From an uncultured Bacteroidales bacterium (lineage in GTDB: Bacteria; Bacteroidota; Bacteroidia; Bacteroidales; JAAAOM01), in assembly GCA_964652315.1 (NCBI GenBank), contig CAZZBU010000004.1, forward strand, positions 1,233-65,232: DNA of 64,000 bases, given 5' to 3'. Both the position numbers and the translations under genes were made by a program. Shown here one piece after another: positions 32,293 to 34,989 of the stretch. Position 1 is the first letter of the stretch. The number at the start of each line of letters is the position of its first letter. The notes below the pieces were generated by a model, which was not told the DNA's origin, did not search any database, and saw nothing but the letters and a program-made list of their open reading frames with translations.

Positions 32293-34989
32293 ATGTTAAA
32301 ATCTTTTGATACAATAAGAATAAAGCTATGGTCTGTTTTAGGATTAATAACTGCAGGCTGGATTATTTTTGGTATCATTTCCCTGACCTCTCATGGAAAG
32401 TTGTCTAATTATCAACAGCTAAATGACCAGATTACCCAATATAAAAATGGCCTTGAGGCAATTAAAGACAGTTTCGAAGGACTAAGTGCTGTATCTGTCA
32501 GGCAAACAGGTACGGAAGATGAGGAGAAAGCGGATAATTTTACAGCTTCTTTAAATGAAGCTATAAGCAGGCTTAATCACCTGACTGCCCAAATTACAGA
32601 AAACCATTTTTTCTATTCTTCAGAATCAAATGAAGTATTGCTGCTTATGGTGGATGAAAATCTGAATGACTTACAGGAAGATCATACCACCATCATTGAA
32701 CTTATTCAGGAACGCAACCTGGAGGAAACAGGCGCCGTTAGCCAATGGAATACTGAAGCGCGATTGCTTTCCGAAATTGGCTCGGTAAGCAACAATAACT
32801 TTGTACAACGTAACATTGCCCAGCTCGTTCGCTATAAATCCGCTTACCTGAGCACGCCCGATGAGGCCATTATTCATGCTATAACTGTTGAAGGAGAACA
32901 GCTTAAAAATGACATACAGCAAGATACCTTGATGTTTCCTTCAGAAAAAGACCAGTTGGCCGCTGCAATCAATGATTATATGGCTGCAGCAAACAGTGTG
33001 CTGGAAAAAGATATCCGCATTGGGCTGACACACCAATCCGGGCTGGTTGGCAATGCCCTTGGTAATATATCGGACATGCAACAACAGCTGGACAATATCA
33101 GTGACAATATTCTTTCCGTATACCAAACCATTAAATTACGCTCACAAGCTGTCTTATGGATATTCTGGATCCTTTTTGTTCTGGTAATTATCGGGCTTTC
33201 GCTTCTTACGGTGCATTATTTTACCAATGCCACTGGCAGGATTGCCCGCTTTATCAATCAAATGTCAACCGGCAGTACTCCGGAAAAGATTCATCTTGAC
33301 ACCAACGATGAATTTAACAGCATCGCAAGCGGACTAAACAAACACATGGAACATCTTCAGGAAAAGATTGCCTTTGCCACCAGCATGGCCGAAGGAATAA
33401 CGGATGTTGAATTTAACCCGGCCGGGAAGGAGGACGATCTGGGCAATGCCTTGTTGTCTCTGAGTGAAAATCTGGAGAAGACCAAAAAAGAAGAAGAGAA
33501 AAATGCGATTGAAAGCCAAAAGCGCAGTTGGACCAACGAGGGCTTGGCCAAATTTGCCGATATCCTGAGACAAAATAATGATAATCTTGACAAGCTTGCT
33601 GATAACCTTATTATCAGTCTGGTAAAGTACATTGAAGCTACCCAGGGCGGCATTTTTCTTATTAATGATGATAATGCAGACAATCCAATCCTGGAATTAA
33701 AGTCTTCTGTTGCCTATGACAGAAGAAAATTTGTACAGCGTACATTTGAAATGGGTGAAGGATTGGTAGGGACAGTGGCAGTTGAGAAAAAAAGCATCTT
33801 GCTCACCGAAATTCCTCAGGATTACATGGAGATAACAAGCGGACTGGGCGAAGCCGAACCCGATTGCCTCCTGATTGTGCCCCTGAAACTCGAAAACAAA
33901 ATACTTGGAGTGCTCGAACTGGCTTCTTTTAATGTTTTTCAACCGCACGAAGTCGATTTTATTGAAACCATTGGCGAAAGCATTGCCTCTACGCTCACCA
34001 CGGTGCGGGTGAATGAGCGGACTGCCGAACTGCTTGAAAAATCGCAGCGGCAGGCTTCTGAAATGGCCGAACAGGAGGAAGAAATGCGCCAGAATATGGA
34101 AGAACTTCAGGCAACACAGGAAGAAGCATCCAGACGCGAAACCGAAATTACCAGCATCCTCAATGCAGTTCATTCCACATCCCTTGTAGTGGAGTATGAT
34201 CTGGATGGGAATATCCTGAATATCAATGAAAAATTCCTCAAATTGATGAATCTTCCCAAAAGAGATATCATTGGCATTCATCACAGTGATTTTACAGCTA
34301 AAAACCGCACAGAAAACGTGTACATTGAATTCTGGAATACCATGCTAAAAGGAGAAGCCGTGAACAATACCGAAGTGATAAAACTACCTACCGGGAAAAA
34401 GCTCTGGCTCAATCAAAGTTACACACCCATTTTAAATCAGGAGGGTAAACCCACCAAGATAATTAATATAGCTGTTGACATTACAGCTACAAAAACTACA
34501 GAACAGGAACTTGAAAAAAAATCAAGGGAGGTATTGCATAAAACCAATGAATTCAATACGCTGAATACGGCAATCAACCAATCCATTATTAAAAGTGAAT
34601 TTAAGCCGGACGGTACCATTGTGGATGCCAACGATAATTTTGCTGCCATGCTGGGATATCCCCTGAAGGACATTCTGAATAAAAACCTTTGGGATTTTAT
34701 GAATGATGAGGAAAAAGACGTGCTGGACAGCTTCTGGGCAAACCTTGTCAATAAATCTACCCATAAAACCAACCTTAAACGTATAAAACCCAATGGGGAA
34801 ATTCAATGGCTAATATCCACTTTTACCCCGGTGATTGATGATGATGCCAATGTATATAAAATTTATTATCTGGCACAGGATATTACAGAACAGAAAATGA
34901 AATATGAGCTTCTGGTTGAAGCAAACAAAGAAATAGATCGCCTTAAGCACCTGTTGGGTGAAAAAGGAACTGACCAACAAAAGAGTTAA
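32293..34989 (+). CDS. Membrane sensor protein: TM, ~250-aa extracytoplasmic helical domain, TM, HAMP, GAF, Glu-rich coiled coil, PAS, PAS. No recognisable output domain
   Basis: TM1 [20 protein letters not shown] and TM2 [25 protein letters not shown]-like ..[40 protein letters not shown]... GAF ..[11 protein letters not shown]...[55 protein letters not shown]... Coiled coil [33 protein letters not shown]. Two PAS/PAC units end in ..IAVDITATK.. and ..LAQDITEQK... The protein stops 30 aa after the second PAS. Confidence 0.8.
   Translation: [898 protein letters not shown]

Follow-up and report, generated by a model that had tools for sequence, protein, structure and literature searches.

The chemotaxis adaptation enzymes CheR and CheB act on Glu/Gln pairs in helical heptads of methyl-accepting chemotaxis proteins (MCPs). 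One class of candidate substrates outside MCPs, termed MAC, was reportedly first predicted by Wuichet and Zhulin in 2010. MAC proteins are CheB/CheR-associated signalling proteins other than MCPs, in which a coiled coil has been proposed to accept methyl groups, and they occur with or without other chemotaxis systems (bioRxiv 10.1101/2022.05.07.491037; PMC6943060). Profiles of MAC proteins exist solely in MiST 3.0 (PMC6943060), and as of 2022 the proteins were experimentally uncharacterised in any respect (bioRxiv 10.1101/2022.05.07.491037). Another related system is RsbK of B. cereus, a CHASE3-HAMP-GAF-S-helix-kinase-REC protein whose signalling helix (S-helix) is methylated by the adjacent CheR-like protein RsbM (PMC4574943); the signal of RsbK reaches a partner switch through RsbY, a PP2C protein, and no esterase is paired with RsbM (PMC4574943; PMC12848376). 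Here we analyse a 64,000-nucleotide stretch, referred to below as the window (positions 1,233 to 65,232 of contig CAZZBU010000004.1, assembly GCA_964652315.1), from an uncultured Bacteroidales bacterium. Two of its sensor proteins, P0003 and P0004, carry a Glu-rich coil behind a GAF domain and are encoded in one operon with two CheR genes, a CheB gene and genes of the SiaB and SiaC families. With moderate confidence we favour the interpretation that this coil is a methyl-accepting helix, which would be methylated by CheR outside a chemoreceptor. Judging from the sequence comparisons described below, it is probably the target of the enzymes encoded by the neighbouring CheR and CheB genes, which would place a chemotaxis-style adaptation on a phosphatase switch.

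The locus is similar to MAC2 in that separate genes for CheB, CheR1 and CheR2 lie in the same operon, an arrangement kept in at least eight related loci and in genomes without MCPs, and two CheB-CheR-coil-PAS(-kinase) fusions of the same genome fit MAC1. The difference is that MAC, according to a secondary-source description, joins a receptor and a kinase, whereas P0003 is output-less and P0004 ends in a PP2C/SpoIIE domain. Like RsbK, the window has a signalling helix that comes after GAF, an adjacent CheR-type gene, and PP2C plus a partner switch downstream, a likeness at the level of architecture. RsbK, however, is a hybrid histidine kinase, while in the window the helix belongs to a PP2C-fused sensor and to an output-less one. 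Furthermore, the window encodes a dedicated CheB, devoid of a receiver, and one more CheR that is degenerate, whereas RsbM has no paired esterase. The switch of the window is SiaB/SiaC instead of RsbW/RsbV/sigma-B, and its coils belong to a very large family with multiple copies in Bacteroidota. The idea of a methyl-accepting coil outside MCPs is already published, as the MAC class and, with demonstration, as RsbK/RsbM. The window departs from these precedents in its output, which is either PP2C/SiaB/SiaC or no output domain, together with the dedicated esterase.

Two coil segments behind GAF domains

Both coil segments had been picked out in an earlier note on this DNA, whose reading of them is identical, letter for letter, to our translation. 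They align without gaps, as had been claimed, and the shared pattern N.RT..LL..SQ....E....EE..RQN.EE..ATQEE is correct, one extra identity (E21) having been overlooked. BLASTP aligns the two coils with 22/39 identities (E = 7e-12). P0003 (898 amino acids) and P0004 (867 amino acids) are paralogues with 30% identity over 456 residues; since the whole proteins share just that much, the coil is their best-conserved stretch. The residue pairs recur at exact 7-residue intervals in both proteins, namely S589-E590, E596-E597, E603-E604 and E610-E611 in P0003, and E319-E320, E326-Q327, E333-E334 and E340-E341 in P0004. According to Pfam, the GAF domains span residues 431-568 of P0003 and 164-298 of P0004, and the coil starts about five residues past the GAF match. 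The proposal that such a coil follows each GAF domain thus stands for these two proteins and fails for the third GAF protein of the operon, which has no coil; the motif is not GAF-specific.

In the AlphaFold2 model of P0004 residues 150-480, which was built from a 20-row alignment and has a mean predicted local distance difference test (pLDDT) of 85.5, the coil lies mid-way in a single unbroken helix of 88 residues leading from the last GAF helix into PAS1, with pLDDT of about 87-94 across the coil segment. The heptad register was set by hydrophobic periodicity, which places A, E, M and Q at the successive 'a' positions and M, M, L and M at the 'd' positions. Two of the 'a' positions are thus polar, and both (E, Q) are conserved. 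The four Glx-Glx pairs (Glu-Glu or Glu-Gln) of the coil core occupy heptad positions b and c.

S-helices (Anantharaman, Balaji and Aravind 2006; PMC1592074) are likewise heptad helices, of about 40 residues, that lie between two signalling domains and tend to be acidic at b and c. This brings up the first of two alternatives, in which the coil is an ordinary linker of the S-helix type, its acidity at b and c is structural, and CheR and CheB act elsewhere, for example on the MCPs of the genome. An ERT signature marks the S-helix family, whose b and c positions are for the most part negative (PMC1592074). Our coils start with N-E-R-T in P0003 and N-Q-R-T in P0004, the latter with Q-R-T in place of ERT, and T alone is frequent across the coil family. 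The location of the coil between two signalling domains, and its recurrence as a linker ahead of PAS, are equally in keeping with this alternative. On the other side, the coil adds a near-invariant block that falls outside the S-helix definition and strictly co-occurs with CheR, and near-invariance at b, c, e, f and g over thousands of proteins is unlike a generic linker.

Match to known methylation sites

Methylation sites in MCPs are spaced by seven residues, as exemplified by sites 297/304/311 of Tsr (PMC1079850) and E168/E175/E182 of FrzCD (PMC2535941). The MCP methylation-site consensus (PMC1079850) is matched by E603-E604-L-Q-A-T in P0003 and E333-E334-M-R-A-T in P0004, with flanking pairs at +/-7. 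The coil thus resembles MCPs (Tsr, Tar, FrzCD) in the 7-residue spacing of pairs, in the Gln at some pair positions and in the adjacent CheR and CheB. MCPs differ in having an MCPsignal domain, a hairpin tip and an antiparallel four-helix bundle, none of which is present here; the helix in the window is a single linker from GAF to PAS, for which a parallel dimer is expected.

All of ten orthologues of the PP2C sensor have E or Q as second residue in the central pair (E-Q in G465), whereas the first is variable (R-E in L112), as are the other pairs. This restriction to E or Q is in line with the rule by which, of the two Glx, the second is modified. The PP2C sensor of L129, which comes from the MCP-less genome G465, has E-Q as its central pair and I-A in place of the second pair, which is lost; a Gln at the position predicted to be modified resembles the changes at MCP sites deamidated by CheB. 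The earlier suggestion that EE-LQ-AT and EE-MR-AT are the best candidates for CheR/CheB substrates finds convergent, if indirect, support in the E-E-x-x-A-T that is invariant among the nine paralogues of the genome and agrees with the published consensus, the intact motifs of CheR1 and CheB, the co-occurrence with CheR and the MCP-less genomes, the last two of which are considered next.

Co-occurrence with CheR and genomes without chemoreceptors

Co-occurrence was scored across the same order, in 151 genomes that represent ~148 families with about one genome each, at thresholds of E <= 1e-8 for the motif and E <= 1e-10 for CheR. Motif and CheR occur together in 61 genomes, CheR without the motif in 33, and neither in 57; the motif without CheR was found in none (Fisher p = 2e-18, uncorrected for relatedness). 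Presence of the motif in CheR-less genomes, which the earlier note had named as the sign of a purely structural helix, was thus encountered in 0/57. A sample of 301 genomes from the whole phylum, 149 of which have CheR, was dropped for this purpose in favour of the order-level one because the motif occurs in just 8 of them (3 strong). In a further set of 50 motif-bearing genomes that have no CheR near the fetched coil locus, CheR was present elsewhere in all 50. Fifteen motif-bearing genomes of the order-level sample have no MCP, compared with none that has no CheR, indicating that the motif follows CheR rather than chemotaxis.

Five MCP-less genomes from five families, each 99% complete (G462, G465, G459, G429 and G374), were examined individually, and MCP, CheA and CheW are absent in all five. 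Each has one CheB, without a receiver. The only CheR proteins above the curated cut-off are CheR1 and CheR2, except that G374 has one additional weak match (31 bits summed). In 5/5 genomes the genes for CheR2, CheB and a PP2C sensor of ~880 amino acids that bears the coil are grouped on one contig; CheR1 adjoins CheR2-CheB-PP2C in three of them and lies on another contig in G429 and G374. The three clusters that were fetched encode CheR1, CheR2, CheB, a small GAF protein, the coil-PP2C sensor, SiaB, SiaC and an ABC fusion. Because MCP, CheA and CheW are absent, the enzymes of these five genomes must act on a target other than a chemoreceptor.

These data also bear on the S-helix-type linker. 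Six MCP genes are present in our genome, and in relatives the CheA-type clusters that adjoin a coil gene do contain an MCP. Against this, CheR accompanies the motif in 61/61 genomes and the motif is missing from every CheR-less one; moreover, the five genomes without MCP, CheA and CheW keep CheR, CheR' and CheB only in this operon, and an MCP substrate is impossible in them. We consider a purely structural linker, with CheR and CheB acting elsewhere, improbable.

Conservation and extent of the coil family

The genome contains nine motif-bearing paralogues, and its relatives contain up to 31 copies. In the alignment of the nine paralogues (A1), E35, R38, Q39, E42, E43, A46 and T47 are invariant, and so is the central E-E-x-x-A-T. 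In 426 unique homologous coils, a sample that is biased because it was retrieved by patterns, the core has the consensus Q-E-E-E-[ML]-R-Q-N-[ML]-E-E-[LM]-x-A-T-Q-E-E, and its positions are each conserved at 83-98%. When 1.84 billion cluster representatives were searched exhaustively with a profile, 4,250 matched at E <= 1e-3, and 2,875 of these still did so at E <= 1e-10; a word-based search with the coil region yielded >5,600 proteins, chiefly Bacteroidota GAF-PAS proteins without an output domain. Related loci are carried, among others, by Perlabentimonas, Labilibacter, Dawidia, Draconibacterium and Rapidithrix.

Many family members have two to nine copies of the motif per protein. Three database proteins, P0012, P0014 and P0132, contain it 4-9 times each. 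In P0014 the motif stands ahead of each of four PAS domains, and in P0132 copies precede PAS as well, whereas P0012 consists of a GAF domain and six tandem coil repeats of ~70 residues, with nothing further. Such multi-copy, PAS-linked architectures indicate that the motif is a modular helix which precedes PAS or ends the protein, rather than an appendage of GAF. Inputs of the coil proteins of our genome include Cache, HAMP or Reg_prop, and what follows the coil is nothing, PAS only, PAS-PP2C, or PAS-HisKA-HATPase-REC, the paralogue on contig C15 being the only one with HisKA-HATPase-REC. Contig C3 encodes two Reg_prop/Y_Y_Y beta-propeller sensors of ~1,125 amino acids (L021:5941-9309 and L021:12850-16248); in both, the coil lies ~40 residues before the C-terminus, and Pfam finds neither GAF nor an output domain.

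This degree of conservation admits a second alternative, according to which the coil serves above all as a surface for docking or oligomerisation and methylation, if there is any, might take place elsewhere. The coil could tether CheR1 or CheB, bind CheR2 as a reader, or pair output-less sensors with the PP2C sensor much as the MCP tip pairs with CheA/CheW. Conservation of the 18-residue core at 83-98%, including the non-acidic R, Q, N and Q, resembles that of an interaction surface. Many family members have no output domain and consequently need a partner, and CheR2 is kept in every cluster despite its degenerate S-adenosylmethionine (SAM) site. Strict co-occurrence with CheR would be accounted for equally well. 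However, the partner is hypothetical, and a CheR/CheB site would be expected to have E-E-x-x-A-T, pairs at heptad intervals and, in PP2C-sensor orthologues, solely E or Q as second residue, none of which docking requires. Likewise, up to nine repeats per protein ahead of PAS are awkward for a single docking site. Docking as the main role thus seems to us rather unlikely, though it is compatible with methylation and the two are not mutually exclusive.

A genome-wide scan for EE..[AS][TS].EE returned 14 open frames, comprising three MCPs, two CheB-CheR fusions, seven members of the coil family and two other large frames with an ERT...NEEL coil. As remarked earlier, CheB-CheR fusions contain EEL-rich coils, and the two of this genome (contigs C38 and C77) do so. 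Their SNEELQSTNEEL coil represents a common theme for which homology is not demonstrable, because in a BLASTP comparison of the fusion L126 with P0003 the coils gave no significant alignment (E = 16) and profile A1 had no match to CheB-CheR fusion proteins. In two further large frames, on contigs C6 (1969 amino acids) and C104 (839 amino acids), NEELxAxNEEL heptads come after ERT, which represents a third type of Glu-pair coil next to those of the GAF-coil family and of the CheB-CheR fusions.

Gene neighbourhood

CheR directly adjoins the coil gene in 11/80 related loci from other genomes, and in our genome all three stand-alone CheR genes adjoin a coil gene. Two contexts are conserved. The first is the window-type operon, with CheR, (sensor), CheR', CheB, small GAF, coil-PP2C, SiaB and SiaC, and no MCP was found in this operon in any of eight further genomes. 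The second is a CheA...CheR...CheD-CheB cluster followed by a coil protein; it is the weaker evidence, because in relatives this cluster includes a canonical MCP. Beyond the operon, the genome has six MCP genes, one CheA cluster and the two CheB-CheR fusion proteins. The earlier observation that there is no canonical MCP in the cluster therefore holds for the window and for orthologous window-type clusters, and does not extend to the rest of the genome. In P0003 and P0004 the MCPsignal model (PF00015), which detects the six MCP genes elsewhere in the genome, has no match at E <= 0.01.

The CheA cluster on contig C15 (L022, 28000-40952) has the order CheA-CheR-HATPase-CheD-CheB and, unlike L095, L109 and L112, no MCP between CheA and CheR. 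It includes a 571-residue protein without a Pfam match (L022:1704-3419) and a STAS protein, and is followed by a GAF-coil-PAS-HisKA-HATPase-REC kinase that is cut by the contig end. In L112 (Labilibacter sediminis) and L127 (G243, same order), both contexts are fused into a supercluster whose genes all run in one direction, and a coil protein is encoded between the two parts, a hint that these were once a single system.

Genes of the operon

All genes of the CheR/CheB-sensor-Sia operon are on the same strand, and its minimal set consists of eight genes (Table 1). In CheR2, comparison with B. subtilis CheR (5ftw) reveals changes from ATD to ATS and from AACSTGEE to PECVSGDE; it is retained next to CheB in the orthologous clusters examined and may be a pseudo-enzyme or an adaptor. 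For CheR1 with two coil copies and SAM, complex prediction gave a score of 0.20 against a mark of 0.32, which counts neither for nor against binding. Neither a kinase nor a receiver domain was found by Pfam in P0003 or P0004. P0004 scores 165 bits against the SiaA equivalog NF038263, which has a cut-off of 700 bits, and the match is confined to the PP2C part. Two other acidic regions encoded in the operon, the linker of the small TM-GAF protein and the tail of SiaC, were considered as CheR substrates and set aside, as they are without the E-E-x-x-A-S/T heptad context.

Table 1. Coils, predicted methylation sites and operon genes in the window (TM, transmembrane segment)
Feature	Position	Strand	Basis
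Coil copy 1 (P0003 residues 573-619), S-helix-like N-E-R-T start, then Glu-pair heptads	34009-34149	+	Translation, alignment A1 of nine paralogues, logo
Coil copy 2 (P0004 residues 303-349)	38109-38249	+	Translation; inside long AlphaFold2 helix
Central heptad site of P0003, E603-E604-L-Q-A-T; E604 predicted methyl-accepting Glu	34099-34116	+	
Central heptad site of P0004, E333-E334-M-R-A-T; E334 predicted methyl-accepting Glu	38199-38216	+	
CheR1 methyltransferase, SAM-binding motifs intact	31402-32241	+	Pfam CheR 7.7e-39; alignment to B. subtilis CheR 5ftw
P0003, output-less membrane sensor: TM, ~250-residue outside domain, TM, GAF, coil, PAS, PAS	32293-34989	+	
CheR2, CheR fold, SAM-binding motifs degenerate; possibly pseudo-enzyme	35007-35837	+	Pfam CheR 1.5e-23; alignment to 5ftw
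CheB, catalytic domain alone without receiver; Ser-His-Asp triad kept	35843-36403	+	Pfam 5.1e-48; alignment to T. maritima CheB 3sft
Small TM-GAF protein without coil	36414-37193	+	
P0004, sensor phosphatase (SiaA-like): TM, GAF, coil, PAS, PAS, PP2C/SpoIIE	37203-39806	+	
SiaB-family protein kinase	39837-40415	+	NF038262 1.5e-52
SiaC-family phosphoprotein	40437-40811	+	PF09345 6.3e-41
TerB-like/ABC fusion protein, 1029 residues; possible output	40951-44040	+	

The downstream part of the operon resembles SiaABCD of P. aeruginosa (PMC7647112), in which a PP2C sensor, a SiaB kinase and a SiaC phosphoprotein are encoded in the same order. The window differs in having no SiaD diguanylate cyclase and in the addition of CheR, CheR', CheB and the GAF-coil. 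No paper linking SiaABC to CheR was found in a literature search. A gene for a TerB-like/ABC fusion lies directly 3' of SiaC in 10/10 related clusters that extend past SiaC (L079, L081, L089, L097, L062 of Draconibacterium orientale, L112, L127, L128, L129 and L130, three of them from MCP-less genomes). The fusion looks like a conserved ninth gene and is a candidate for the SiaC output that takes the place of the SiaD cyclase.

Points against methylation of the coil

Several observations weigh against the interpretation of the coil as a methyl-accepting helix. Alexander and Zhulin (2007) are said to have described a wider MCP site pattern with small residues on both sides of the pair; in our coils this pattern is matched downstream only, R-Q-N standing for the upstream small residues. 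The R, Q, N and Q46 of the core are conserved at 94-98%, which, together with the near-invariant polar 'a' residues, goes beyond what a methylation site needs and suggests a binding surface. Asp occurs in the third pair in 13% of the sequences of the 426-coil logo, neither E-E nor A-T is left at the central site of the PP2C orthologue L112, and the second pair is missing in G465. S-helices are generally acidic at b and c (PMC1592074), so that Glu pairs alone are not diagnostic. The p-values of co-occurrence are overstated because the compared genomes are kin, and 69/80 related loci have no CheR within ~10 kb, as is the case for most MCP genes.

Proposed mechanism

The mechanism that we infer for the methyl-accepting helix would operate as follows. 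Each sensor is expected to dimerise, and its last GAF helix would run on as one long helix into PAS1, exposing the b/c pairs mid-way. The target of CheR1 would be the second Glu in the central pair (E604 in P0003, E334 in P0004), possibly with the flanking pairs as further targets, and CheB, which has no receiver, would reverse the methylation and also deamidate Gln (Q327). Neutralisation of the Glu charges would alter the packing or rotation of the helix and in this way reset the strength with which the input, sensed by the outside domain and GAF, drives the PAS-PP2C output, which in turn would act on the switch formed by the SiaB kinase and the SiaC phosphoprotein. The many coil-bearing paralogues encoded elsewhere in the genome would use the same enzymes, just as MCPs share one CheR/CheB.

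A more elaborate version would amount to a kinase-free chemotaxis-like network. Output-less GAF-coil receptors (4-31 per genome) would converge via the coil on one PP2C sensor, the degenerate CheR2 would recognise the methylation-site helix without catalysis, as a reader or an adaptor, reversible adaptation would come from CheR1 and CheB, and SiaB/SiaC would control the TerB-like/ABC fusion. Such a network would be an analogue of the MCP array built on a phosphatase and a partner switch, not on CheA. We regard it as a speculative and quite improbable extension.

Implications

The adaptation enzymes of textbook chemotaxis are widespread in this phylum, with CheR in about half of the genomes sampled, many of which have no chemoreceptor. 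If the coil is indeed methylated, reversible Glu methylation would endow a PP2C/partner-switch pathway, as well as thousands of sensors without an output, with a sensory memory. The MAC class would gain a function, and the sole experimental precedent, RsbK/RsbM, which has no esterase, would be extended to a fully reversible system. The question is directly testable, given the named residues (E604, E334 and Q327), an operon of eight genes, genomes free of MCPs and named relatives.

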